From Catenuloplanes sp. (GTDB taxonomy: Bacteria; Actinomycetota; Actinomycetes; Mycobacteriales; Micromonosporaceae), in assembly GCA_036386695.1 (NCBI GenBank), contig DASVVF010001057.1, positions 1 through 14,077 on the forward strand: DNA of 14,077 nt, in the 5' to 3' direction. Both the position numbers and the translations under genes were made by a program. Positions 1,589 to 14,077 of the stretch are shown piece by piece; the stretch's first letter is position 1, and each line of letters opens with the position of its first letter. Below the pieces are notes generated by a model. It saw nothing but the letters and a program-made list of their open reading frames with translations, searched no databases and was not told the origin of the DNA.

Positions 1589-4500
1589 CTACCCCTCGGG
1601 AGCGAGCCGATCGGCGGCCCGGCCGATCGCCGACTCCACCCGGTCGGCGAGCAGGCCCACCGCACCGACAGCGCGGCTCATCGGGTCGTCGGCGGCGCCG
1701 CCCAGCGCCCGTTCGCGCAGATACGCCGCTTTCACCTCGGCCCACCGGCGGGACTGTTCGGGGGTCAGCCGGCCGCGCAGCTCGGCGAGCTTGAGCAGGT
1801 TCGCCTCGGCACCGGAGGTCAGCGTCTGGGCCTCGCCCGCGTAGTGGTCGTCGATGGCGGCTTCCAGCTCGTCGTCGTTCATCACCGGGACGATCCGCTC
1901 GGCCAGCTTGTTCATGTTCCGGTACGAACCCTGCAGCCGGAACGGCGGCTCGGTGCGCGACGCGTCGGCCTGCCCCGCCGAGGCGATGTACGCCTGGTTG
2001 TTGGCCAGCACCACCCGCTGCACCCGCAGCATCTTGCCCAGGACCGACAGCAGCTGGGTCAGCTCCACCGACGAGTACGGGTGCGCCAGCTGGTCGGGGC
2101 GTACGCTGCCGTCGCCCGCCGCCAACCGGACCAGCAGCTCCACGTCGCCACGTTCCCTTGTGGACATCGGGGCCAGCACCGGGTTGGAGGTGAGTGCGTT
2201 CTCGATGTAGCTCAGCGCGAACAGATCGTCCCGGCCGGCCAGCACGTCACCGAGGTTCCACACGTCCGCCCGGTTGGCCAGCATGTCCGGGATCCGGAAC
2301 CGTTGCCCGGCCTCGGTGTACGGGTTGCCCGCCATACACACCGCGAACCGCTTGCCGCGCAGGTCGTAGGTGCGGGTGCGGCCCTCCCACACGCCTTCCA
2401 TCCGGCGCTGCGCGTCACAGAGCGGGATGAACTTCTGCAACAGCTCGGGTGAGGTGTGCTGGATGTCGTCGAGATACAGCAGCACGTTGTTGCCCATCTC
2501 CAGGGCGAAGGAGATCTTCTCGACCTCCTGGCGGGCGGTGGCGTTGGGTGCCTCGGCCGGGTCCAGGGAGGTGACGTCGTGGCCGAGGGCCGGGCCGTTG
2601 ACCTTGACGAAGACCAGCCCCAGCCGGCTCGCGACGTATTCCATCAGGGTCGTCTTGCCGTAACCGGGCGGCGAGATGAGCAGCAGCAGACCCATCTGGT
2701 CGGTGCGCTTGGCGGCGCCGACGGCGCCGAGCTGACGGGCCAGGTTGTCGCCGATCAGGGGCAGGTAGACCTCGTCGAGCAGCCGGTTGCGCACGAAGGC
2801 GTTCATCACGGTGGGCCGGTATTCGTCCAGGCGTAGCCGGGCCCGCTCGGCGGCGGCCAGGGCGGTGCGCTGGCGTTGGTACGCCCGGTACGCCGGCACC
2901 CGGTCCAGGCGGAACCGGTGGGTACGCGACAGCGCCTCGTCGAGCCGCAGCTCCAGCCGCCGCCCGGTGAGCCGGGGGTGCGCGCCGAGCAGACCGTCCA
3001 CAGTGGCGGTCAGCGCCGCCGACGAGTCGTGCCGGGGTAGCTCGGCACCGCACAGCTCGATCGCGACGGCTTCCGGGAGGTCGATCGCCTGGGCCGCCCG
3101 ATCCGGTGACGACGCCAGGAAGGCGCCCAGCCACGCCTCGATGAGTTGGTGCCGGGCGGCCAGGTCGTCGCCGAGGGAGCGCAGGTCGTCGTCGAAGTCC
3201 CGCCCGGAGCGCGACCCGGCACCACCGAGGGCCTGGCGGAACCGGGTGAGCAACGAACGCGCCCCGGCGCTGGTCACGAAGCCGAACGGGGCTCCGGACA
3301 GCTCCTCGAAGAGGTACTCGCCGACCAGGTCGGTGGGCTGCGGTAGGCCGACCGTCCGCAGGAAGTCGCCGGCGGCCCCGGTCAGCTCCGCGCACATGTC
3401 GTCCACGGCGGCCGGTCGGCCGAACGCGGCCCGGGCCCGGGCGAGCGAGCCGGCCCGCCGGGACCAGGCGGCGCGGGCGGCCGGCTGGGCGCCGTACGCC
3501 CAGAAGAGCTGGGCGGCGGCCCGCTCGGCCGCCGGGTAGCGCAGCAGGCCGGCACCGATGTGCAGGCGCAGCAGCGCGTCGAGGATGGCGGTGGCGTCGG
3601 CGTCGTGCACGCCGCGCTCGTACCCCTCGTCGTAGCGGGCTTCGGCGGCCCGGCGTACCAGGTCGTGCAGGGCGCCGTCGGTGACGGCGGCCTCGCGCAG
3701 TACGTCACCGCCCACCTCGGACAGCACGATGGCGGCGAGGTGTTCGGCCCGGTAGACCTCGGTCGACTCGGAGACCAGCGGCTGGTCCCAGAACGGCCGG
3801 GTGGCCTGGAACGCCTCGTCGGCCACCGGCGACCGGTAGTCGGTGGCGGTCACCGCGAACGCCATCGCGCCGTCGTGCGGCACCAGGGTCAGGTCGATGA
3901 CCTGGGTGTTCACCGCGAACCGGTGCCGGCCGAGCCGGATGGTGTCACCGCCGTCGGTGTACAGGTCGAGGCGGTCCCGCAACGCCCGGCCGGCCTCTTG
4001 CCGGGCGGCCTTCACCCGGCCGTCCAGCTCCTCCGCGCGCACCTGGTCACCGAGGGCGCGCAGTTCCTCGGCGACGCTGCGCAGCTTCGTGATCATCGGG
4101 TCGGCGACGAAGTACGTGTTGACCTCGTCGAGGGAGTCGAGGCCGGCGACCCGGCGCTGCACGCTGGCCAGGATCCGCCCGGCGGAGTCGACCAGCCGGT
4201 CGGCGCGGCGGGCCCGGTCGTCCAGCAGCGCCTGCTTGCGCGCGGAGAACGCCTCGTAGACGTCGGTCCGCTTGGTGCCCAACTGGGCCAGGAAGTCGTC
4301 GAATTCGGCGAACCGCGACTCGAGGTTCTCCAGTTGCAGCAGCAGCCGGCCCAGCTGCTCGTCGCAGTGTTCCGGGGTGTCGGCGGCGGCCAGGGCGCCG
4401 GTGATGGCCTGGGCCAGCAACGCGAACTGGGCGCTGAACTCGGCCCGACCCTCGACGTCGAGCAGTTCCCGGCGGCGGCCGTCCAGGGTGGCGCGGGCCC

Positions 4501-6526
4501 GGTTCACCCCGCCGAGGACTTCGCCGATGCGCTCCAGGATACCGATCCGCACCCGCGCGTCGGTGATGTCCAGGGTGCCGACGATCTCGGTGACCACCTG
4601 GAGTCCGTCCGCCTGCTCGGTCAGCCGGGCCTCGATCGGGGCCGCCTGGGCGACGGCCGAGATCCCGGCGGCCTCGGCCACCAGCCGGTCCACCTCGGCG
4701 GTGTAACCGGTGAAGGCGTCGTCGCGCCCGAGGAACCCGGCGGCCCGCTGCCCGGCCGAGGTCAGCTCGCCGGCCAGGTCGACGGCGAGCCGGTCGATCC
4801 GGTCGGTGTCGACGTAGCGCAGCTCGCGCAGGCCGACCAGGTGGCCCTGCGCCTGGCGCAGCGCGGCGAGTTGGCGTACCCACGCGTCGGTGGTGGCCGG
4901 CACCTCGCCGCGGGCCCGGCGGATCAGCGACGCGGTCCGGTCGGCCGCCTGCTGCACCGCGGCGGTGGCCTGGTCGGTGAGCGCCTGCACGGTTTCGAAC
5001 TCGTCGAGGACCTGCTCCGCGGTGGCGCGGACCTGGGCCAGCGGGGTACGCAGGTCGCCGAGGTCACGGTCGCCGAGCCAGTGGTAGTGGTCGAAGATCC
5101 GGGCACAGGCGGCGATCATCGCCTCGAACACCGGACCGGACGGGCTCATCTCGCCGACCATCCGGCCCACCGACAGGCAGTCCGAGATGCCCCGGACCAG
5201 CTCGGCGTTGCCGACCCGCTCCAGCGGGCCGGTGCCGACCGGCTGGGCGGCGGCGTAGGTGTCGGCCAGGTACGGGGTCTGCCACACCTGCATCGGGTGC
5301 ACCCGGGCCGGCTCGTCGGACATCGCCCGGAAGACGACCAGCGTGCCGTCGTCGAACAACGAGTACCCGTGGCACGGCACCGGCGTGGCGACCTCCTTGC
5401 GGATCACGTTGTACGGCAGCAGCAGCGACCGGCCCTCGGCGCGGGCGTGGAAGACGTACAGCACGTCCTCACCGTTGGTGGAGCGGATGACCCGCTCGAA
5501 TTCGAGGCTGGCCACGTCGGTGTCGAAGGTGCGGCTGACCCCGGTGGCCAGGTAGTAGCCGCCGGGGAAGATGATCCCGTGGTCCTCGGGCAGCCGCTGG
5601 CATGCCTGCCCGATGCCGTCCACCCGCAGCACGTCGCGGGTGCGGGTGTTGAAGACCAGGTACCGCCAGGCGGTTTCCTTGTACGGCAGGATTTTGAGCA
5701 GGATGAGCGGCCCGACGCGGGCGTAGCGCACATCGGCGTCGGCGAGGCTCTGCAGCGGTTCGTCGACCGGCTCCCGGTAGATCCCCTCGCCGTCCTCGGT
5801 GTTGTTCTCCACCTTGACCGTCAGGGTGCCGCCGACCGTTTCGACGAACACCTCGTCGTCGATCGAGATGTGCGGGTGCCGGCCCAGGACGTGGTGGTCG
5901 CGGGTGGTCTCGGTCCACTCGAAGTCGTGCGGCCGGGGGAAGACGTGGTCGCGCTCTCCGCGATTGTCCACATACGACACGCTGCCGTCGGTTGCCACCC
6001 GCCAGCGCAGCACCCGCAGGTCGTCGGGGCGCGGGCCGGTCTGGAACACGGCCAGCAGCAGCCCTTCGACCCGGCGGAGCTGGACCAGCCGGGTCTCCCG
6101 GTAGTAGCGGTACAGCTCGGCGAAGTCCCGCTGGAACGTCGGATCGTCCAGCAGCCCGGGCAGCGCGTCCGGGCCGACCTCCTCGAACCGGAAGGCGTCA
6201 CCGTCGCGGGTGAAGCCGTGCAGCGAGATGACGTCGGCTACGGTCGTCTCGCTCTTCAGCCCGATGAACACGTTGTATCCGAACAGCATCAGCCCACCGA
6301 CGGACACGATGTCGCGCGGGACGCAGTTGTTCGCCGTCCGGATCCGTTCGGTGCCGAGCAGCCGCAGCTCCGCGCTGCCGAACGTGGCCACCCGCTCGGC
6401 GTTGAGCGCCTCGGCGCGCCGGGCCAGCTCGGCGGCCTGGTCGGCCAACCGGGCCCGCAGCACCTCGTAGGTGCCGGCGTCGAGCGCGGCGGCCCGGCCG
6501 GGGGCCGCCGTCGCCACGTCCGTCAC
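1589..6526 (-). CDS. Giant (1645 aa) uncharacterized AAA+ ATPase. It has an N-terminal beta-rich domain (~500 aa), a ~700-aa Ala/Arg/Glu/Leu-rich helical region and a C-terminal P-loop AAA+ module with a ~190-aa helical C-terminal extension. Similar large proteins are often auto-annotated 'DNA repair ATPase' without evidence.
   Basis: GTG start at 6526-6524 gives MTDVATAAPGRAAAL and overlaps the flotillin TGA stop (GTGA). Walker A LLLLISPPGYGKTT is at 2648-2671 (verified by reverse-complementing). Walker B VLLYLDD is at 2465-2485. A downstream sensor/Arg-rich segment reads CMAGNPYTEAGQRFRIPDM. GC3 is very high. The opposite-strand ORF 3560..6916 is low-complexity antisense. Confidence 0.85.
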   Translation of the reverse strand: MTDVATAAPGRAAALDAGTYEVLRARLADQAAELARRAEALNAERVATFGSAELRLLGTERIRTANNCVPRDIVSVGGLMLFGYNVFIGLKSETTVADVISLHGFTRDGDAFRFEEVGPDALPGLLDDPTFQRDFAELYRYYRETRLVQLRRVEGLLLAVFQTGPRPDDLRVLRWRVATDGSVSYVDNRGERDHVFPRPHDFEWTETTRDHHVLGRHPHISIDDEVFVETVGGTLTVKVENNTEDGEGIYREPVDEPLQSLADADVRYARVGPLILLKILPYKETAWRYLVFNTRTRDVLRVDGIGQACQRLPEDHGIIFPGGYYLATGVSRTFDTDVASLEFERVIRSTNGEDVLYVFHARAEGRSLLLPYNVIRKEVATPVPCHGYSLFDDGTLVVFRAMSDEPARVHPMQVWQTPYLADTYAAAQPVGTGPLERVGNAELVRGISDCLSVGRMVGEMSPSGPVFEAMIAACARIFDHYHWLGDRDLGDLRTPLAQVRATAEQVLDEFETVQALTDQATAAVQQAADRTASLIRRARGEVPATTDAWVRQLAALRQAQGHLVGLRELRYVDTDRIDRLAVDLAGELTSAGQRAAGFLGRDDAFTGYTAEVDRLVAEAAGISAVAQAAPIEARLTEQADGLQVVTEIVGTLDITDARVRIGILERIGEVLGGVNRARATLDGRRRELLDVEGRAEFSAQFALLAQAITGALAAADTPEHCDEQLGRLLLQLENLESRFAEFDDFLAQLGTKRTDVYEAFSARKQALLDDRARRADRLVDSAGRILASVQRRVAGLDSLDEVNTYFVADPMITKLRSVAEELRALGDQVRAEELDGRVKAARQEAGRALRDRLDLYTDGGDTIRLGRHRFAVNTQVIDLTLVPHDGAMAFAVTATDYRSPVADEAFQATRPFWDQPLVSESTEVYRAEHLAAIVLSEVGGDVLREAAVTDGALHDLVRRAAEARYDEGYERGVHDADATAILDALLRLHIGAGLLRYPAAERAAAQLFWAYGAQPAARAAWSRRAGSLARARAAFGRPAAVDDMCAELTGAAGDFLRTVGLPQPTDLVGEYLFEELSGAPFGFVTSAGARSLLTRFRQALGGAGSRSGRDFDDDLRSLGDDLAARHQLIEAWLGAFLASSPDRAAQAIDLPEAVAIELCGAELPRHDSSAALTATVDGLLGAHPRLTGRRLELRLDEALSRTHRFRLDRVPAYRAYQRQRTALAAAERARLRLDEYRPTVMNAFVRNRLLDEVYLPLIGDNLARQLGAVGAAKRTDQMGLLLLISPPGYGKTTLMEYVASRLGLVFVKVNGPALGHDVTSLDPAEAPNATARQEVEKISFALEMGNNVLLYLDDIQHTSPELLQKFIPLCDAQRRMEGVWEGRTRTYDLRGKRFAVCMAGNPYTEAGQRFRIPDMLANRADVWNLGDVLAGRDDLFALSYIENALTSNPVLAPMSTRERGDVELLVRLAAGDGSVRPDQLAHPYSSVELTQLLSVLGKMLRVQRVVLANNQAYIASAGQADASRTEPPFRLQGSYRNMNKLAERIVPVMNDDELEAAIDDHYAGEAQTLTSGAEANLLKLAELRGRLTPEQSRRWAEVKAAYLRERALGGAADDPMSRAVGAVGLLADRVESAIGRAADRLAPEG
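2465..2485 (-). other. Walker B coding segment (VLLYLDD) of the giant AAA+ protein.
   Basis: Reverse complement of 2461-2500 translates to EMGNNVLLYLDDI: four hydrophobic residues followed by DD. Confidence 0.8.
2648..2671 (-). other. Walker A / P-loop coding segment (PPGYGKTT) of the giant AAA+ protein.
   Basis: Reverse complement of 2648-2689 reads ctgctgctgctcatctcgccgcccggttacggcaagacgacc, which translates to LLLLISPPGYGKTT. Confidence 0.85.
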
Positions 6527-8664
6527 TGCTTCGCGGCGGTCAGCGCCGCCACCGGCGTCTCCGCCACGCCGAGCCGCTGGGCGGTGGTCAGCAGCTCCCG
6601 CAGCTTGCCGGCGTCCGGACCGCCGGCCTTGATCTGCTGGAGCAGGAACGCCGACAGGGTGAGGTTGCCGATGTCCGCGGTGCTCATGCCGCCGAGCACC
6701 CGACCGAGGTCGTCGGCGAGGTGGGACGACCCGTTCAGGTACGGCTTGGCCAGCGCTTGGGCCACGTCGGAGTGGCCGACGAAACCATCGACGCTCTTGC
6801 CCATGGTGATCGAGCCGATCAGCTTGTCGAAGAACATCCCGTCGCCACCGACGATGTCGATGTTCGCCTTTTCCAGGCCGGCGGCCATCACCAGCGCCTG
6901 CGCCTCGGCGACCTGACGCTGCACGTCGATCCCGGCCAACCGGATCTCCTTCTCGGCCTCCAGCCGCAGGCGGTACTCCTCGTGCTCCCGGCTGGCGTCG
7001 TTGAGGGCGGCCATCGCGGCGGCCTTGTCGGTGAGCCCTTCGGCCTCGCCCTTGAGCTTCTCGCGCAGCGACTCGGCGATGGCCAGCCCCTTCTCGCGTT
7101 CGTTGGCCGCCTGCGCCTCGCCCCGCTGCCGTTCGATGGCGGCCAGCGCGCCACCCTTCTCCAACTCGACGGTGGCCTGGGCCTGACCCAGCTGCAGCTC
7201 GACGGTGGCCTGCGCCTGGCCGCGCTCCCGCTCGACGGCGGCCTCGGCCCGGCCGATCTTCTCGATCGCCTCGGCGTTGCGCTCGCGCACCTGCACGTCG
7301 GCCAGTCCCTTGGCGGCCGCTTCGGCCTGCACCCCCTCGGCGAGCCGGATCTTCGCGCGGGTGTCCAGCTCGGCGGCCTGCTGGCGGGCCTCGGCGAGGA
7401 CCAGTTCCTCGCGGGCCTTGAACCTGGCGGACGCCTCGGCGGCCTCGGCCGCCTTGATGTCCTTGACCAGGCTCTCCTGCGCCTCTCCCTCGGCCTGGAT
7501 CACCACGGCCTGGCGGATCCGCTCGGCCTCTTCGACGACCCGCAGCCGCTTGATCTGCTCCTCCTGCTCGGCGACGGTCTTGTCGACGGCGATCCGCTCG
7601 CGCACCACCTCGGCGACGGCCCGCTTCTCGGCCTCCACCTCCTTGTCCTTCGAGATGGTGGACAGCGCGGTCTCCCGCTCCCGGGAGATGATCTCCAGCT
7701 GCCGGTCCTTCTCGATCCGCTCGGTCTCGATGGCGATCACCCGCTCGCGGTTCTTCTCCGCGACGGCGATCTCCCGGGCCTGGTTCTCCTTCTGCACACC
7801 GAGCTGCTCGTCGGTACGCAGGTAGGCGGTCTGGGCCTTGAGCCGCTCCTCGGACTGGACCCGGGTGATTTCGGCCTCCTCGCGGGCCCGCATCGTCTGG
7901 ATCTCCCGGTGCTGCTTGATCTCCGCGTCGGCCTGGCGCCGTTCCAGCTCCAGGATCGCCTCCTTGGCGTCGACGTTCTGCCGGGTGATCTCCTTCTCCT
8001 CGTTGCGGCGGTAGTCGTTGGTCCGCACCGCCTCGATCGCGGTCAACTCTGTGATCTTGCGGATGCCCTGGGCGTCGAGGATGTTCGCCGGATCCAGCCG
8101 GGTCATCGGGGTCTGTTCGAGGTAGTCGATGGCCGCGTCCTCAAGGCTGTAGCCGTTGAGGTCGGTGCCGATCACCTCGATGATCCGGTCCCGGAACTCG
8201 TTGCGCTTGGTGTAGAGGTCGACGAAGTCGAGCTGCTTACCGACCGTCTTGAGGGCCTCGGAGAACTTGGCGGCGAACAACGCCTGCAACGTCGCCTCGT
8301 CGCTGGCCCGTACGGTGCCGATGGCCTGGGCCACCTTGATGACGTCCTCGACGGTCTTGTTGACCCGGACGAAGAAGGTGATCCGGATGTCGGCGCGGAT
8401 GTTGTCGCAACAGATCAGGCCCTCGTGACCGGTGCGCTCGACCTCGATCGTCTTCACCGAGATGTCCATGATCTCGGCCTTGTGCAGCACCGGCATGACG
8501 ATCGCACCGGTGAAGGTCACATCGACCCGGCGGACCTTGGAGACGATGAGGGCCTTGCCCTGCTCCACCTTGCGGAACAACCGGGTGACGAGCAGGACGA
8601 AGCCGATGACGACGAGCAGGACGACGGCGAAGAGCACGCCGACCCCAACGGAGATGACATCCAT
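6523..8664 (-). CDS. Flotillin-family SPFH/band-7 protein (YqiK/FloT-like). It has an N-terminal TM helix, an SPFH domain and a ~350-aa Ala/Glu/Arg-rich coiled coil with EA repeats.
   Basis: ATG at 8664-8662 gives MDVISVGVGVLFAVVLLVVIGFVLLV, a TM helix. The SPFH-like core reads KALIVSKVRRVDVTFTGAIVMPVLHKAEIMDISVKTIEVERTGHEGLICCDNIRADIRITFFVRV. It is followed by a long heptad-like EAxxRxxA coiled coil typical of bacterial flotillins. Stop TGA is at 6525-6523. A GGGA Shine-Dalgarno sits 5-8 nt upstream. Confidence 0.9.
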   Translation of the reverse strand: MDVISVGVGVLFAVVLLVVIGFVLLVTRLFRKVEQGKALIVSKVRRVDVTFTGAIVMPVLHKAEIMDISVKTIEVERTGHEGLICCDNIRADIRITFFVRVNKTVEDVIKVAQAIGTVRASDEATLQALFAAKFSEALKTVGKQLDFVDLYTKRNEFRDRIIEVIGTDLNGYSLEDAAIDYLEQTPMTRLDPANILDAQGIRKITELTAIEAVRTNDYRRNEEKEITRQNVDAKEAILELERRQADAEIKQHREIQTMRAREEAEITRVQSEERLKAQTAYLRTDEQLGVQKENQAREIAVAEKNRERVIAIETERIEKDRQLEIISRERETALSTISKDKEVEAEKRAVAEVVRERIAVDKTVAEQEEQIKRLRVVEEAERIRQAVVIQAEGEAQESLVKDIKAAEAAEASARFKAREELVLAEARQQAAELDTRAKIRLAEGVQAEAAAKGLADVQVRERNAEAIEKIGRAEAAVERERGQAQATVELQLGQAQATVELEKGGALAAIERQRGEAQAANEREKGLAIAESLREKLKGEAEGLTDKAAAMAALNDASREHEEYRLRLEAEKEIRLAGIDVQRQVAEAQALVMAAGLEKANIDIVGGDGMFFDKLIGSITMGKSVDGFVGHSDVAQALAKPYLNGSSHLADDLGRVLGGMSTADIGNLTLSAFLLQQIKAGGPDAGKLRELLTTAQRLGVAETPVAALTAAKQ
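7163..7221 (-). repeat. 33-bp internal tandem duplication within the flotillin coiled coil, encoding GQAQATVEL(Q/E)(L/K) x2.
   Basis: + strand aactcgacggtggcctgggcctgacc (7163-7188) and agctcgacggtggcctgcgcctggcc (7196-7221). Protein reads ...RGQAQATVELQLGQAQATVELEKG... Confidence 0.8.
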
Positions 8665-8678
8665 GACGGTCCCTTAAG

Positions 8679-8760
8679 GCAGAGGGTGGGTGGTGTGGGG
8701 GGTGGCGGGGGGGTCAGGCGGTTGCGGGGGGTTCGGGGTGGCGCGGGTCGGGATGCAGGG
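8679..8760 (+). repeat. G-run tract (G3-G7 runs) on the + strand spanning the NfeD 3' end and the NfeD-flotillin intergenic spacer. It is a potential G-quadruplex on the template strand of the operon.
   Basis: gagggtgggtggtgtggggggtggcgggggggtcaggcggttgcggggggttcggggtggcgcgggtcggg. Runs include GGG, GGG, GGGGGG, GGGGGGG, GGGGGG and GGGG. Confidence 0.5.
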
Positions 8761-9406
8761 CGGCGTCCGCGGGCACGATCCAGAAGAACTCGCCGTCGCC
8801 GTCATAGCCGTAGATCAGGGCGTGGGTGCCGGCGGGCAGCGGATCGGCAGCCGCCTGCCGGACCTGGACCAGCGCGGACGAGCCGTCCGGCGTGGTCACC
8901 TCGGCCTGGCCGAAGTGGCGGTCCACCCGGCCGGTGCGGACCACGCAGGTACGCCCGACGAACTCGGCTCGGGACGGTCCGCTGCCTGTGGGCAGGGCGC
9001 GCCGCAGCAGCGGCACCACCAGCCGGGTGCCGAACCAACCGACGGCCAGCGCGGCGAGCAGCACCGCGAGGGAGGCCAGGGGGAAAACCTCATCGCCCAC
9101 CAGGACCGTGCCGACCAGGCTGAGAAACCAGGTGAGGGCGATCAGCAGCGATCCGGCCACGGCGGCCGGCACCCCACCGAGGCCCAGACCGCTCATCAGG
9201 CCGGCCACGCCGCCGTCCAGCCCGGCGTCGCCGTCGAGGTCGGCGGCACCCAGCACGACCAGCAGCCAGTAGCCGACGACGACAACCAGCAGGAAGGTGA
9301 ACAGTACGGTCGGGAAGCTGAAGGCAGCGCCGATGAACCCGCCCATCCCGCGCCTCCCCACCGCCGTACCGACTACCAGCAGCGTGGCAGGCCTCGTCAA
9401 CACCAT
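8714..9406 (-). CDS. NfeD/YqiJ-like membrane protein. It has multiple TM helices plus a C-terminal OB-fold beta-barrel, and is the usual partner of SPFH/flotillin genes.
   Basis: 230-aa ORF with hydrophobic segments (FIGAAFSFPTVLFTFLLVVVVGYWLLVVLGA; LLIALTWFLSLVGTVLV; LASLAVLLAALAVGWFG). The C-terminal region (EFVGRTCVVRTGRVDRHFGQAEVTTPDGSSALVQVR...GTHALIYGYDGDGEFFWIVP) fits the short NfeD beta-barrel. It lies immediately upstream of flotillin, as in yqiJ-yqiK and nfeD2-floT. The start is uncertain: ATG 9406 has a poor SD, whereas internal ATG 9346 is preceded by a strong GGGGAGG with a 6-nt spacer and would give 210 aa. Confidence 0.7.
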   Translation of the reverse strand: MVLTRPATLLVVGTAVGRRGMGGFIGAAFSFPTVLFTFLLVVVVGYWLLVVLGAADLDGDAGLDGGVAGLMSGLGLGGVPAAVAGSLLIALTWFLSLVGTVLVGDEVFPLASLAVLLAALAVGWFGTRLVVPLLRRALPTGSGPSRAEFVGRTCVVRTGRVDRHFGQAEVTTPDGSSALVQVRQAAADPLPAGTHALIYGYDGDGEFFWIVPADAALHPDPRHPEPPATA

Positions 9407-9640
9407 CGGTCCGGCCGGGCTGGTGCGCCATCAATGGTCGTGAATTTGATTCGCGATCCGGCGCCGCACCCGGGCGGTCAAGGATCTGGTCGACCGTCCG
9501 GCCGCCGCGCGATCATGCCACACCCCGGGCCGGGGGCGGACCCACCCCACCCGGCGCGCCGAACCGGTCCCGACGCCAAGGGCCCGACCCTGGTGGAATA
9601 TGTTTTCTGGGAACAGTTCACCACCAACTACCCGGTCTCG

Positions 9641-9661
9641 CCGTCGGTTCCGGTCCGACGG
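9641..9661 (+). promoter_or_regulatory. 7-bp inverted repeat ccgtcgg-N7-ccgacgg, 19 nt upstream of the GH13 ribosome-binding site. Possible operator or small hairpin.
   Basis: ccgtcgg (9641-9647) and ccgacgg (9655-9661) are exact reverse complements. Located in the 284-bp divergent intergenic region 9407-9690. Confidence 0.3.
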
Positions 9662-9679
9662 TTCAGCTGACCGGGACGT

Positions 9680-9684
9680 GGAGG
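9680..9684 (+). promoter_or_regulatory. Shine-Dalgarno GGAGG for the GH13 gene, 6-nt spacer to ATG 9691.
   Basis: cgtgGAGGttcgacATG; canonical anti-SD complement. Confidence 0.6.
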
Positions 9685-9690
9685 TTCGAC

Positions 9691-11277
9691 ATGCCGTGGT
9701 GGCGCGACGCCGTGATCTACCAGGTGTACGTCCGCAGCTTCGCCGATTCCGACGGTGACGGCATAGGTGATCTCCCCGGGGTCCGTTCCCGGCTGCCGTA
9801 CCTGCGGGAACTGGGCGTCGACGCCCTCTGGCTGAACCCGTTCTATCTGTCACCGCAGGTCGACGCCGGATACGACGTGGCCGACTACCGGGCCGTCGAC
9901 CCGCGGTTCGGGACCCTCGCCGACGCCGACGACCTGCTGCGTGACGCCCACGACCTGGGGCTGCGGATCATCGTCGACCTGGTGCCCAACCACACCTCGG
10001 ATCAGCACCCGTGGTTCCAGGAGGCGCTGCGGTCGCGCCCGGGCAGCCCGGAACGCGCCCGGTACCTCTTCCGGGACGGCCGGGGGCCGGGCGGCGACCA
10101 GCCGCCGAACGACTGGCCCAGCGTCTTCGGCGGCCCGGCCTGGCACCGGGTCACCGAGCCGGACGGCACCCCCGGCCAGTGGTACCTGCACCTGTTCGCC
10201 CCGGAACAGCCGGACCTGGACTGGACCAACGACGAGGTTCGCGCCGAGTTCGAGTCGATCCTGCGGTTCTGGCTCGACCGTGGGGTCGACGGCTTCCGGA
10301 TCGACGTGGCGCACGGGCTGGCCAAGGACCCGGAGATGCCGGACCTGGCCGGTCGCTTCGCCAGCGCCGGGCCGGCCGTATCGGGGCACCCGCACTGGGA
10401 CGTCGACCAGGTGCACGACGTGTACCGCGGCTGGCGGCGGGTGATCGACTCGTACCCCGGTGACCGCACGTTCGTCGCCGAGGCCTGGGTGCACACCCCC
10501 GCCCAACTCGCCCGCTACCTGCGCCCGGACGAGCTGCACACGGCCTTCAACTTCAACTTCCTGCTGGCCCCGTGGGACGCCAAGGCGGTCCGGGCGGCCG
10601 CCGACGAGAGCATCGCCACGCTGGTCGACGTGGGTGCCCCGGTGACCTGGGTGCTGTCCAACCACGACGTCATCCGGCACGTCACCCGCTACGGCGGCGG
10701 GGAGCTCGGCACCCGGCGCGCCCGCGCCGCGGCGCTGCTCATGTTGGCCCTGCCCGGCGGCGCCTACCTGTACCAGGGTGAGGAACTGGGGCTGCCGGAG
10801 GTCATCGACCTGCCCGACGAGGTACGGCAGGACCCCAACTTCTTCCGGACCGGCGGGGCCGAGCGTGGTCGCGACGGCTGCCGGGTGCCGCTGCCCTGGT
10901 CGGGCGACGAACCGCCGTACGGGTTCGGCCCGGGCGGCCGGCCGTGGCTGCCGCAGCCGGCCAGCTGGGCGCAGCTGTCGGTGCAGCGGCAGGACACCGA
11001 CCCCAGCTCGATGCTGGCGCTCTACCGGGCCGGGCTGCGGCTGCGGCGGGAGCTGCCGGCGCTCGGCGAGGGCGCACTGTCCTGGGTCGACGCCGGCCCG
11101 GACCTGCTGGCCTTCCGCCGGGAACCCGGTTTCCTGTGCGTGACCAACTTCGACGACGGACCGGTACCTGCTCCGGCGGACCTGCTGACCGGCCACGATG
11201 TGGTACTGGCCAGCGGATCGACCCCGACCGACGGCACCATCCCGGGCAACACCACCCTCTGGTGCGTGGCCCGCTGA
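9691..11277 (+). CDS. aglA: Glycoside hydrolase family 13 alpha-glucosidase / oligo-1,6-glucosidase-like enzyme, 528 aa, cytoplasmic (no signal peptide).
   Basis: All four GH13 conserved regions are present: I VDLVPNHTS, II GFRIDVAHG (nucleophile Asp codon at 10303-10305), III FVAEAW (acid/base Glu codon at 10480-10482) and IV LSNHD. The N-terminus DAVIYQVYVRSFADSDGDGIGDL and the QPDLDW motif are typical of the oligo-1,6-glucosidase/alpha-glucosidase clade. Strong SD; stop TGA at 11275-11277. The gene symbol is by family resemblance only. Confidence 0.93.
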   Translation: MPWWRDAVIYQVYVRSFADSDGDGIGDLPGVRSRLPYLRELGVDALWLNPFYLSPQVDAGYDVADYRAVDPRFGTLADADDLLRDAHDLGLRIIVDLVPNHTSDQHPWFQEALRSRPGSPERARYLFRDGRGPGGDQPPNDWPSVFGGPAWHRVTEPDGTPGQWYLHLFAPEQPDLDWTNDEVRAEFESILRFWLDRGVDGFRIDVAHGLAKDPEMPDLAGRFASAGPAVSGHPHWDVDQVHDVYRGWRRVIDSYPGDRTFVAEAWVHTPAQLARYLRPDELHTAFNFNFLLAPWDAKAVRAAADESIATLVDVGAPVTWVLSNHDVIRHVTRYGGGELGTRRARAAALLMLALPGGAYLYQGEELGLPEVIDLPDEVRQDPNFFRTGGAERGRDGCRVPLPWSGDEPPYGFGPGGRPWLPQPASWAQLSVQRQDTDPSSMLALYRAGLRLRRELPALGEGALSWVDAGPDLLAFRREPGFLCVTNFDDGPVPAPADLLTGHDVVLASGSTPTDGTIPGNTTLWCVAR

Positions 11278-11372
11278 GTCCGCCGGACGACGCCGCCCGC
11301 AGCCGGGACGCGGCGGGGCGCCCCCGCAACGCCCGCCCCCGGGACGAGCTGGGCCGGCCGCTGCCGTACGGG

Positions 11373-11867
11373 ATGCCCGGGGTGCGGACCACCCCGGAGG
11401 ATGTCGTCCTGGCCCCCCGGGAGGCGCTCACGGAGGCGCAACGGCTGCTCGACGCCGGCCGGCCGTTCCACGCCCACGAGGTGCTGGAGGGCACGTGGAA
11501 AGCGGCGCCCGAGGGGGAGCGCGAGCTGTGGCGGGGGCTGGCGCAGCTCGCGGTCGGTCTGACCCACGTCCGCCGGGGCAACCCCGCTGGCGCGGTGCGG
11601 TTGCTGCGCCGGGCCGCCGACCGGGTGGCGGACTACGCCGCGACCCCACCGCACGGTGTGCCGGTGCGGAATCTGGTGACCTGGGCCCGGGAGCTGATCC
11701 TGCGGATCGAGGACGGCGGAACGGCCGCGCTGCGACCGGCCGACCTGGCGCCCCGGTTGACCGGGGCGGACGACGAGCTGACCCGGGCGGACGAGTTGAC
11801 CGGGGCCGACGAGTTGACCGGGGCGGACGACGAGCCCGGCGGCGCGGGCCCGGCCGCCGCGCGCTGA
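11373..11867 (+). CDS. DUF309-like small protein (~164 aa) with a C-terminal LTGADE-type tandem peptide repeat.
   Basis: The frame is open from the GH13 stop region. The first ATG after the GH13 stop is at 11373; an upstream non-ATG start is not excluded. The core RPFHAHEVLEGTWKAAPEGERELWRGLAQLAVGLTHVRRGNPAGAVRLLRRA matches the DUF309 signature (F.aHE.LE..W......e......GLIQ.Av...H...GN..GA..L). Stop TGA at 11865-11867. Confidence 0.6.
   Translation: MPGVRTTPEDVVLAPREALTEAQRLLDAGRPFHAHEVLEGTWKAAPEGERELWRGLAQLAVGLTHVRRGNPAGAVRLLRRAADRVADYAATPPHGVPVRNLVTWARELILRIEDGGTAALRPADLAPRLTGADDELTRADELTGADELTGADDEPGGAGPAAAR
11757..11834 (+). repeat. Imperfect 17-22-bp tandem repeat x4 (ttgaccggggcggacgacgag variants) encoding LTGADDE / LTRADE / LTGADE / LTGADDE at the C-terminus of the DUF309 protein.
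   Basis: Units at about 11757-11778, 11779-11795, 11796-11813 and 11814-11834. Confidence 0.8.
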
Positions 11868-12236: not shown

Positions 12237-14077
12237 ATGGTCGGACTTCGGCGGTTACTCCGCCCAGCGTTGCTCGGCGCCACGGCGGCCATGCTCGTCG
12301 CATCCACCGTGACATTCGCCCCTTCCGCCGCTGCCGCGATCGGGGACGGCGGCCCGGCCGACGCCAACATCAGATACCTCGGTCGCTGGGACCCGCCCAG
12401 CGCCACCACCGCCGTCGGCCACTGGTCGGCGCCGTATCTACGGGCCGCCTTCACCGGCACCACGATCCGGGTGAAGCTGCGCGACCGCGCGAACATCTAC
12501 GTCAGCATCGACGGCCAACCCGACGTGTTCCACCAGGGCGTCCGGGGCACCGTCAACCTGACCCCGACACCGCTGGCCGCCGGCACCCACCAGCTCTGGA
12601 TCGCCTTCCGCGGCGGCGCCGCGTTCCAGGGCTTCGTGCTCGGCGCCGGCGCCGGCACCGTCGCGCCGACGGTGTCGGACACCCTGGTGGAGTACGTCGG
12701 GGACTCGATCACATTCGGCGCGACCTCCTCGAAGCTCACCGTCACGTCGTACGGCTGGGTCGCCAGCGAACAGCTCGGGGTGGAGCACGCCACGGTGGCC
12801 CGGTCGGGCGGCTGCCTGGTCAGCCGGCCGGACTGCTTCGGGCTGAGCGTCAACTACGTCAGGAAAGGCGTCGGCCTCACCGAGGACTGGGACTTCGCCC
12901 GGTACCGGGCGGACGCCGTAGTGATCAACATGGGTACCAACGACGCCGGCCGGGGCGTGACCGCCGCCGACTTCGGCTCGGCGTACCTGCGGTTCCTGCG
13001 CGACATCCGGGCCAGGCGGCCGAACGCCGCGCTGTTCGTCTTCCAGAACTTCCGGCAGCGTTACGTGGCCGAACACCAGGCGGCGGTCCGGACGCTCCAC
13101 GCGGCCGGCGACCTGAACGTCCACTACGTCGGCACCGCGGGTTGGCTCACCGACGCGGACTACACCGACGGCGGACATCCCAACGACGCCGGCCACCGCA
13201 AGGTCGCCGACCGGCTGGCACCCATCCTGGCCCCGCACCTGGGCGGGCCGACGGCGGCGGTCGGGGATGGCAGCACCACCGACCCGAACATCGCCTTCGT
13301 CGGGCGGTGGGACCGCGGTTCGACCACCGCGTTCGTGTCGAACTGGGCCGGGGCGTACCTGCGCACCGGTTTCACCGGCACGACCGTGCGGCTGCGCCAG
13401 CGCAACCCGGTGGACCTGTGGGCGAGCATCGACGGCGGCGAGTTCGTCAGCTTCCGGAACGTCTCCGGCACGGTCAATTTGACCCCGACCCCGCGCAGCG
13501 CCGGCAACCACACGCTGATGGTGAGTTACCGGCAGGTGGCCGGGGCGTACCGGGGGGACGCCGTCTTCACCGGGCTCACCCTGGACCCGGGCGCCCGGAC
13601 CTACGCCCTGCCGGTCCGACCCGGGCTGGTCGAATTCGTCGGTGACTCGATCACCGCGGGCGCCACCAGCAGCAAACTCGCCGTCACCGACTACGCCTTC
13701 GTGGTCGGCGAACGCCTCGGCGTCGACCACACCCAGATCACCATCGGGGGGATGTGTCTGGCCGAAACGGCCGACGGGTGCTGGGGGCACGAGGGCCGGT
13801 ACTTCCTGACCAACGGCACACTGGGCACGGCGGCCTGGGACTTCTCCCGCTACCAGGCGGAGGCGGTGGTGATCAACCTGGGCACGAACGACCGCAGCCA
13901 CGGCGTGGCGGCGGCGGACTTCCAGGCGAAGTACACCACGTTCCTGCGCGATGTCCGGGCGAGGTACCCGAGGGCGGCGCTGCTGGCGCTACGCACCTTC
14001 ATCGGCCGGTACGCGGCCGAGACCGAGGCGGCGGTACGGGCCCGCAACGCCGCCGGCGACGCCAACGTCCACTATGT
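12237..14077 (+). CDS. Secreted tandem-duplicated SGNH/GDSL hydrolase (carbohydrate-esterase-like; each unit is a ~110-aa beta-module plus an SGNH domain). 3'-truncated by the window edge and not present in the supplied ORF track.
   Basis: ATG 12237 gives MVGLRRLLRPALLGATAAMLVASTVTFAPSAAAA, a Sec signal peptide with Ala-X-Ala. Unit 1 has GDSIT (Ser codon at 12705-12707), GTND and DGGHPND (His codon at 13176-13178). Unit 2 has GDSIT (Ser codon at 13647-13649) and GTND, with its DxxH beyond the window end. GC3 is high and there is no stop in frame to 14077. The antisense ORF 12438..13901 is rejected. Confidence 0.8.
   Translation, partial: MVGLRRLLRPALLGATAAMLVASTVTFAPSAAAAIGDGGPADANIRYLGRWDPPSATTAVGHWSAPYLRAAFTGTTIRVKLRDRANIYVSIDGQPDVFHQGVRGTVNLTPTPLAAGTHQLWIAFRGGAAFQGFVLGAGAGTVAPTVSDTLVEYVGDSITFGATSSKLTVTSYGWVASEQLGVEHATVARSGGCLVSRPDCFGLSVNYVRKGVGLTEDWDFARYRADAVVINMGTNDAGRGVTAADFGSAYLRFLRDIRARRPNAALFVFQNFRQRYVAEHQAAVRTLHAAGDLNVHYVGTAGWLTDADYTDGGHPNDAGHRKVADRLAPILAPHLGGPTAAVGDGSTTDPNIAFVGRWDRGSTTAFVSNWAGAYLRTGFTGTTVRLRQRNPVDLWASIDGGEFVSFRNVSGTVNLTPTPRSAGNHTLMVSYRQVAGAYRGDAVFTGLTLDPGARTYALPVRPGLVEFVGDSITAGATSSKLAVTDYAFVVGERLGVDHTQITIGGMCLAETADGCWGHEGRYFLTNGTLGTAAWDFSRYQAEAVVINLGTNDRSHGVAAADFQAKYTTFLRDVRARYPRAALLALRTFIGRYAAETEAAVRARNAAGDANVHY

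Follow-up and report, generated by a model that had tools for sequence, protein, structure and literature searches.

What does a giant AAA+ ATPase do beside a flotillin, and does their pairing reach beyond one genome? The question is raised by three open reading frames on the minus strand of the 14,077-nt stretch of Catenuloplanes DNA analyzed here (the window), which encode a small membrane protein (8714-9346, or up to 9406 in the longest form of the reading frame), a flotillin (6523-8664) and an ATPase (1589-6526). A first-pass annotation of the same DNA had put them forward as a candidate for an uncharacterized membrane-microdomain machine, suggesting an ATP-driven remodeling or defense-like module.

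The three genes and their products

The description of three same-strand genes joined by a 49-bp spacer and a GTGA overlap, with a divergent GH13 gene upstream and a convergent gene downstream, is borne out by the coordinates and codons. The stop codon of the small gene ends at 8714, 49 bp from the flotillin ATG at 8664, which is preceded by an AAGGGA ribosome-binding site; the flotillin TGA (6525-6523) and the ATPase GTG at 6526 share the GTGA overlap, and the three genes are tightly arranged and probably translationally coupled. For the ATPase, the ENA gene call gives 1645 residues, and the NCBI model, which starts 9 nt further downstream, gives 1642. The start of the small gene is most likely ATG 9346 and not 9406, because this codon has a GGGGAGG ribosome-binding site 7-8 nt upstream and because the NCBI and ENA models both predict a product of 210 residues. 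The intergenic stretch at 9347-9690, which separates the operon from the divergent GH13 gene and is presumed to hold the promoters, contains no match to the sigma-70 consensus, as expected of DNA with ~70% G+C, and a promoter/terminator scan was uninformative in this high-GC sequence. The GH13 gene itself (9691-11277, divergent from the operon) matches the Pfam Alpha-amylase family (E 4e-105), and the convergent gene downstream of the ATPase ends at 1516.

The product of the small gene (8714-9346, minus strand; 210 residues) is an inner-membrane protein of the YqiJ/NfeD2 type, with three hydrophobic segments, taken to be transmembrane (TM), followed by a soluble C-terminal domain. Its earlier designation as NfeD-type holds when orthologs are pooled: a 74-sequence cross-phylum profile matches Escherichia coli YqiJ (probability 96.6%, E 5.7e-10, 180 columns), and the ortholog at locus L005 matches Pfam YqiJ_N (PF21001, E 3.5e-8). 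The designation does not carry over to domain libraries, however: Pfam, NCBIfam and PADLOC scans return no match for this copy. Its C-terminal region, a candidate OB-fold (NfeD-C) domain, aligns with its YqiJ counterpart, FGQ motif included, and has no Pfam NfeD match. An actinomycete-only profile reached YqiJ with a probability of 10%, being too shallow until orthologs from other phyla were joined to it. Relatives of the protein carry the name "DUF1449 family."

The flotillin (6523-8664, minus strand; 713 residues) is of the YqiK type and comprises an N-terminal membrane anchor, with a single hydrophobic segment in residues 1-34, an SPFH domain, a long coiled coil (56-72% E/A/R/K/Q over residues 200-600) and a conserved C-terminal region. 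Called a clear flotillin from the start, it is recognized as such by hhalign against E. coli YqiK (alignment A1: 99.6% probability, E 6.3e-24, 29% identity over 408 columns that include the SPFH domain), but Pfam (PF01145 included) and NCBIfam are blind to this copy, as is PADLOC; PDB sequence searches with the protein and with its actinomycete profile returned nothing useful. PF01145 is precomputed for relatives of ~75% identity, which are named "flotillin family protein" or "YqiK." Identity to YqiK is ~29%, as against 33-47% to ATPase-linked flotillins from other phyla. The coiled coil contains three copies of a 33-bp tandem repeat (7159-7256, minus strand; 11-residue unit; Tandem Repeats Finder score 126), which probably explains why the protein has 713 residues when most relatives have ~665-690.

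The ATPase (1589-6526, minus strand) is a soluble protein, annotated by NCBI as a "DNA repair ATPase," that lacks any hydrophobic segment. It shares 72-81% identity with its counterparts in other actinomycete genera, and the family comprises 930 clusters at 50% identity. The first-pass annotation saw a P-loop AAA+ domain as the only recognizable catalytic module; that domain is present (Pfam AAA_5/AAA, residues 1281-1408), but the remainder is matched by DUF3686 (residues 33-482, E 1e-223) and DUF7902 (residues 603-687, E 1e-28), two Pfam families named as domains of unknown function. A long N-terminal helix (residues 19-49) leads into a β-propeller-like domain (residues 55-416; 5279-6364, minus strand), and an AlphaFold2 model of residues 1-700 has a mean pLDDT of 90.1. 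Foldseek searches of the PDB with the propeller retrieved generic propellers only (Elp1, Ski8, YncE, paraoxonase and the clathrin terminal domain), the best of them at E 4e-7 and all with low TM-scores. A long helical, coiled-coil region follows (residues 420-855; 3962-5269, minus strand), with DUF7902 inside it, and the middle region of the protein bears an invariant GVHDxDA motif (G972, H974, D975 and D977; 3593-3613, minus strand). In two alignments (n = 29 and n = 52), G972, H974 and D977 are 100% identical, and D975 is invariant in one and conserved to at least 90% in the other; all four residues reach at least 95% in a 71-sequence alignment, the sequences compared extending down to ~27% identity.

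The AAA+ module (residues ~1240-1560; 1847-2809, minus strand) is of the MoxR/dynein type, a protein-remodeling clade, and its fold is closest to MoxR ATPases. The Walker A motif (SPPGYGKTT in translation; 2648-2674, minus strand) and the Walker B motif (LLYLDD; 2465-2482, minus strand) are invariant family-wide, as are CMAGNPYT and PDMLANRAD, which from their positions would be sensor 1 and a candidate arginine finger, respectively; GSYRNM is a candidate sensor 2. Walker B ends in DD instead of the usual DE, and ATP hydrolysis may therefore be slow or regulatory. Matches of the family profile to the PDB are confined to P-loops. Pfam finds no peptidase domain, and this, together with the MoxR-type fold and the lack of a TM segment, upholds the initial view that the protein is neither a protease nor an FtsH relative.

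Gene order across phyla and the PspA-linked form

The three-gene order is kept across at least seven bacterial phyla. Of 74 assessable loci from six other phyla (Bacteroidota, Planctomycetota, Verrucomicrobiota, Desulfobacterota, Clostridia and Fibrobacterota), 69 have the flotillin gene upstream of the ATPase gene and on its strand, as do all four actinomycete loci examined, so that the proposed link between the two genes stands up to a check of their neighborhoods; a YqiJ-like gene precedes the flotillin in 57 loci. Flotillin orthologs were recovered by hmmsearch at E 1e-94 to 1e-211 in 65 of the 69 loci and at E 1e-40 to 1e-87 in the remaining four, which lie at contig ends or are frameshifted. 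In Streptosporangium, Thermomonospora and Actinokineospora the three-gene unit sits amid unrelated flanks, and the families common to many loci are limited to the three operon genes, PspA, CesT/Tir and an HTH regulator. Across loci, the degree of identity to the flotillin of the window shows no correlation with that to its ATPase (r = -0.03), a value made uninformative by the narrow range of identities. Five loci (L002, L012, L013, L044 and L069) carry the ATPase without an adjoining flotillin; at L012 the upstream DNA extends for only 1.5 kb. Genes found between flotillin and ATPase in the other phyla were considered as a possible fourth component and rejected, being unrelated and not conserved.

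In some lineages the operon reaches further upstream. In 22-24 Bacteroidota loci it is directly preceded by genes for PspA_IM30 (E 9e-41) and CesT_Tir_1 (E 9e-56), and plasmid pQBR103 carries YjfI and PspA genes in one gene run with an SPFH protein and a "DNA repair ATPase"; neither a PspA nor a CesT/Tir gene is present in the 14-kb window or at three other actinomycete loci. The earlier view that the layout belongs to no larger cassette is thus accurate for this genome but not for Bacteroidota and pQBR103, where CesT/Tir-PspA cassettes extend it upstream.

Nor is the operon new, as its presentation as an uncharacterized machine had implied. In a comparative-genomics study of the PspA (phage-shock) system of membrane stress, Ravi et al. 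2024 (PMC11237479; bioRxiv version 10.1101/2020.09.24.301986) described an operon of CesT/Tir, PspA, YqiJ/YuaF, Band-7/flotillin and an ATPase combining β-propeller, coiled-coil and AAA+ regions, gave Dokdonia donghaensis ANH61663.1 as an example, and explicitly mentioned abbreviated operons without the CesT/Tir-PspA pair. [quoted passage not shown] The window operon is an actinomycete copy of this PspA-associated flotillin operon in its abbreviated form: it agrees in all three proteins and in their order and differs in having the three-gene form only, without PspA or CesT/Tir, and the Bacteroidota loci compiled here reproduce the full form. Our literature searches found no experimental work on any member of the operon, in agreement with the initial statement that the ATPase has no experimentally assigned function. 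The first two genes also have a precedent in the SPFH2-NfeD2 operons described by Hinderhofer et al. 2009 (PMC2636767). E. coli yqiJ-yqiK and Bacillus subtilis yuaF-floT likewise place a small NfeD2/YqiJ membrane gene before a flotillin-like SPFH2 gene, but in E. coli no gene for an ATPase follows yqiK.

Proposed role of the ATPase and its alternatives

We posit, with moderate confidence, that in this actinomycete copy of a conserved operon the ATPase remodels flotillin, PspA or client proteins in the service of membrane maintenance or envelope stress. Tethered to the membrane by its N-terminal hydrophobic segment, the flotillin would build an SPFH cage on the cytoplasmic side, where its YqiJ partner with three TM segments would join it. 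The giant ATPase would be cytoplasmic, would probably form a ring, as other AAA+ proteins do, and would probably dock through its propeller or helical region. ATP could then be spent on building up, taking apart or otherwise remodeling the flotillin scaffold, ESCRT-III-like PspA polymers, or clients, which would be membrane proteins held by either the scaffold or the polymers, and this remodeling would serve membrane maintenance or the response to envelope stress. The topology fits such a membrane module, since the ATPase has no TM segment and the flotillin has one N-terminal anchor. Observations that run counter to a membrane-stress module are the lack of a PspA gene in the window and at three other actinomycete loci, the missing partner with a VWA domain, the DD of Walker B, and the five of 74 loci that have the ATPase and no flotillin adjoining it.

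Two better-known systems help to place the proposed module. HflK/C-FtsH joins an SPFH scaffold and an AAA+ machine in one functional system; the window resembles it in encoding an SPFH protein together with an AAA+ partner and differs in that its ATPase lacks a protease domain and a TM segment, belongs to another AAA+ clade and is predicted to be cytoplasmic. The likeness to Vps4/ESCRT-III lies in the extended operons, which link an AAA+ ATPase genetically to PspA, a polymer of the ESCRT-III superfamily, and a functional analogy is possible. A Vps4-like ATPase for PspA is apparently absent from bacteria, according to a 2025 review (PMC7619361). We advance only tentatively the idea that the DUF3686 ATPase is this missing ATP-driven remodeler, a functional analog and not a homolog of Vps4, which would assemble or disassemble flotillin cages, PspA assemblies or both.

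In a different role, the ATPase would be a MoxR-type maturation chaperone that serves one particular membrane enzyme or complex, and flotillin and YqiJ would be a mere platform and not its substrate. MoxR-type maturation is exemplified by CbbQ/Rubisco and NorQ/NorB, where it consists in cofactor insertion or activation, and proteins of the family (CbbQ, NorQ, RavA) have ~250-500 residues and usually act with VWA-domain partners. The window ATPase differs from them in its ~1240 additional N-terminal residues, which form the propeller and helical regions, and in the DD of its Walker B motif. There is no VWA-domain gene in the window operon or among its conserved neighbors, and the conserved neighborhood offers neither a VWA adaptor nor a candidate client enzyme, which makes a dedicated maturation chaperone rather unlikely.

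We consider it very unlikely that the operon is an anti-phage or conflict system, in which an SPFH/NfeD membrane sensor would be coupled to a large ATPase as the effector. Some defense systems do contain large ATPases and SPFH proteins, selfish genes (a RayT-like transposase, DUF559, a toxin-antitoxin pair) separate flotillin from ATPase at some loci, and one copy resides on the megaplasmid pQBR103. Yet PADLOC yields P-loop noise only (E 0.003-0.006), none of 50,697 phage records contains a copy, and copies in plasmid records are rare (13 of 72,556, mostly megaplasmids or chromids), and on these grounds a role in defense is improbable. The sequences are very highly conserved (identities of 72-81% between actinomycete genera and ~40% between phyla) and gene order is stable, unlike in fast-evolving defense loci; Pfam detects no nuclease or other recognizable toxic effector domain; and the four actinomycete loci are flanked mostly by metabolic, transport and signaling genes, with one N6 methyltransferase (L082). 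The suggestion of a defense-like module in the first-pass annotation is thus left without support.

The public annotation as a DNA repair ATPase is a misnomer, and we give an actual function in DNA repair scarcely any credence. In its favor are the NCBI and Pfam names and weak RuvB matches over ~36-47 residues around the P-loop. The NCBIfam RuvB models, however, score 21-23 bits against cut-offs of 282-299, with similarity limited to 46 residues of the Walker A region; the fold is nearest to MoxR ATPases and not to RuvB; no domain for DNA binding, helicase or nuclease activity turned up in the ATPase; its conserved partners are membrane proteins; and literature searches gave no paper that backs the name. 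Finally, that ATPase and flotillin are neighbors by a coincidence of this genome is refuted by the order and strand retained in 69 of 74 loci and in four of four actinomycete loci, and its probability is practically nil.

Implications for flotillin and PspA biology

Because the gene association had already been published, the window adds confirmation and detail, not discovery. The detail consists of the MoxR-type AAA+ fold, high-confidence domain models for the whole ATPase, a synteny count of 69 out of 74 loci, and the equation of the ATPase with Pfam DUF3686 and DUF7902. Bacterial flotillins and PspA have been studied as membrane organizers and repair factors, and a giant, highly conserved ATPase that accompanies flotillin and YqiJ across phyla, and in some lineages PspA too, makes an obvious candidate driver of their assembly and turnover. 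If the ATPase does assemble or disassemble flotillin cages, PspA assemblies or both, bacteria would repair membranes or turn microdomains over in a cycle that consumes energy.

Organization of the operon and its products

The window, from a metagenome-assembled contig labeled Catenuloplanes sp. by NCBI, has a G+C content of ~70-76% and carries the operon on its minus strand as a small-gene ORF (8714-9406), a flotillin ORF (6523-8664), and a giant ATPase ORF (1589-6526). A 49-bp spacer separates the small-gene stop from the flotillin ATG, which follows an AAGGGA ribosome-binding site; the GTG start of the giant ORF overlaps the flotillin TGA as GTGA, and the three proteins are probably co-translated. 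For the giant protein, the start in the NCBI model (1642 aa) lies 9 nt downstream of that in the ENA gene call (1645 aa). The first-pass annotation described ORFs, junctions, and flanks accurately, except that it opened the small gene at 9406; ATG 9346 is the best start because a GGGGAGG site lies upstream and both public models give 210 aa. The operon is flanked by a divergent GH13 α-amylase-family gene (9691-11277) and by a convergent plus-strand gene (2-1516) that runs off the start of the window; its product, of 504 aa or more, matches nothing in Pfam at E ≤ 0.01. Beyond the GH13 gene, also on the plus strand, lie genes for a DUF309/TPR-like protein (11262-11867) and a GDSL lipase/CE2-type carbohydrate esterase with Ig-like domains (12237-14075), whose Ig-like matches are weak and below Pfam's cutoffs; with the GH13 gene, they suggest a small carbohydrate-active neighborhood that bears no relation to the operon.

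The small protein has three hydrophobic segments followed by a soluble C-terminal domain, and its relatives are named “DUF1449 family,” the annotation of E. coli YqiJ. A profile restricted to actinomycetes matches YqiJ weakly, whereas a 74-sequence profile that adds orthologues from other phyla matches it with 96.6% probability (E = 5.7e-10, 180 columns), and one orthologue hits Pfam YqiJ_N directly. The window's flotillin has no match in Pfam, NCBIfam, or PADLOC, and PDB sequence searches were unsuccessful; a profile of this protein and 14 relatives nevertheless matches E. coli YqiK over its membrane anchor, SPFH domain, and coiled coil (probability 99.6%, E = 6e-24). Relatives ~75% identical contain PF01145 and are named “flotillin family protein” or “YqiK.” The protein has a single N-terminal hydrophobic segment and a ~400-residue coiled coil rich in E/A/R/K/Q; its 713 aa exceed the ~665-690 aa of most relatives, probably owing to a tandem repeat of three 33-bp units (11-aa unit, ..GQAQATVEL..) at 7159-7256, within the coiled coil.

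The giant protein lacks TM segments and matches DUF3686 (E = 1e-223), DUF7902, and AAA_5/AAA in Pfam. AlphaFold2 models, for which 52 diverse sequences were used, are of high confidence (pLDDT 90.1 over residues 1-700, 90.5 over 701-1645) and show a long N-terminal helix (19-49), a β-propeller-like domain (55-416), an extended helical region (~420-855), a small β-rich unit followed by helical domains, an AAA+ module (~1240-1560) whose fold is MoxR-type, and a helical C-terminus. In alignments reaching ~27% identity, Walker A (SPPGYGKTT), Walker B (LLYLDDIQH), putative sensor-1 (GNPYT), PDMLANRAD, and GSYRNM are invariant. Walker B (2465-2482) has Asp-Asp in place of the usual Asp-Glu throughout the family, a substitution that may denote slow or regulated hydrolysis. 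The helical middle contains an invariant GVHDxDA motif (window 3593-3613, aa 972-978), preceded by a conserved RYxEGYxxG pattern; retained down to ~27% identity, GVHDxDA may mark an additional active or binding site.

Conservation of the gene linkage

Searched with its N-terminal 700 residues, the ATPase yields 930 clusters at 50% identity; full-length members span 1500-2000 residues and are 72-81% identical across many actinomycete genera. A 29-sequence alignment scanned against one genome per GTDB species gave at least 600 matches. Among the matches listed, 586 were confirmed relatives, and 80 loci from Bacteroidota, Planctomycetota, Verrucomicrobiota, Desulfobacterota, Clostridia, and Chitinispirillaceae were retained, in which all stop-to-stop reading frames were searched with HMMs of the actinomycete flotillin and small-protein alignments. 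Of these listed loci, 74 were assessable, having 1 kb or more of sequence upstream; a flotillin orthologue lies upstream of the ATPase on the same strand in 69, with E-values of 1e-94 to 1e-211 in 65 and 1e-40 to 1e-87 in four copies cut by contig ends or frameshifted, and a YqiJ-like gene directly precedes the flotillin gene in 57. In the other five loci, L002, L012, L013, L044, and L069, the available upstream sequence (1.5 kb only for L002 and L012) yielded no flotillin gene; the upstream genes identified there encode DUF389, DUF2147, 7TMR-DISM/SpoIIE, Uma2, and TonB_C proteins.

In some loci a gap of 0.5-2.4 kb between the flotillin and ATPase genes holds unrelated, non-conserved genes, including ones for lipoproteins. 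In several other phyla, selfish or small genes inserted there (L011, 5659-6183; L030, 6718-7248; L014, 8266-8895; L017, 8497-8940; L048, 8353-8912), which by their translations encode RayT/IS200-like transposases, DUF559-like proteins, and a toxin-antitoxin-like pair, leave the flotillin-ATPase order unbroken. Loci from Streptosporangium, Thermomonospora, and Actinokineospora keep the compact three-gene unit amid unrelated flanks, and relatives of the three proteins often share contigs. Three proteins are thus co-inherited: a flotillin with a membrane anchor, its 3-TM YqiJ partner, and an AAA+ protein of the MoxR type that is soluble. The first-pass annotation had named an adjacency peculiar to this genome as grounds for refutation; linkage in other phyla and in three further actinomycetes shows that it is not peculiar.

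PspA context and a proposed model for ATPase action

The operon that the first-pass annotation proposed as uncharacterized is real and was well observed, yet it is an instance of a published, computationally defined one: Ravi et al. (2024, mSystems, PMC11237479; bioRxiv 10.1101/2020.09.24.301986) described CesT/Tir-PspA operons with three further genes, one encoding a 3TM protein exemplified by YqiJ and YuaF, and their supplementary table includes a Dokdonia donghaensis example with the same gene order. SPFH2-NfeD2 operons (YqiK/YqiJ, YuaG/YuaF) were established by Hinderhofer et al. (2009, PMC2636767). We are highly confident in the identification of the window's operon. The three-gene unit is physically linked to PspA in some lineages: in 22-24 Bacteroidota loci among the matches listed, CesT_Tir_1 (E = 9e-56) and PspA_IM30 (E = 9e-41) genes precede the cassette, accompanied by a divergent XRE-type HTH regulator. 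The Pseudomonas fluorescens SBW25 megaplasmid pQBR103 (887-14091 of its locus) carries a single same-strand run encoding YjfI, PspA, a rhomboid protease, DUF2491, DUF350, DUF1190, a glutathionylspermidine-synthase family member, a hypothetical protein, SPFH, and, last, a “DNA repair ATPase,” a merger of two PspA operon types of Ravi et al.

We posit that flotillin, by analogy with other SPFH assemblies, would build a cage or scaffold at the cytoplasmic side of the membrane, onto which the ATPase, probably a ring, would dock via its propeller or helical region to drive ATP-dependent assembly, disassembly, or reorganization of flotillin and/or PspA polymers, or of their clients, during membrane maintenance or stress. 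This specific mechanism is tentative, with the odds slightly against it; identification and mechanism taken as one statement are modestly favored. The main rival, in which the ATPase is a MoxR-style maturation factor for some membrane client and flotillin a mere platform, seems to us unlikely. Less probable by far is a defense system: the family is absent from all 50,697 phage records searched, and just 13 of 72,556 plasmid records contain it, most of these being megaplasmids, chromids, or mislabeled chromosomes. A role in DNA repair is more improbable still; RuvB matches cover just 36-47 residues around the P-loop, far under family cutoffs, and this similarity is probably the sole basis of the “DNA repair ATPase” name. 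Coincidental adjacency can be dismissed, gene order and strand being kept in 69 of the 74 assessable loci among the matches listed.

We found no experimental study of the giant ATPase in the literature; a 2025 review (PMC7619361) notes that bacteria appear to lack a Vps4-like ATPase and that the roles of PspA's Band-7 partners are undetermined. To the published operon, the present analysis adds the identification of the ATPase with DUF3686 and DUF7902, its MoxR-type AAA+ assignment, high-confidence domain models, and a quantified synteny count, and the operon is a reasonable experimental target.
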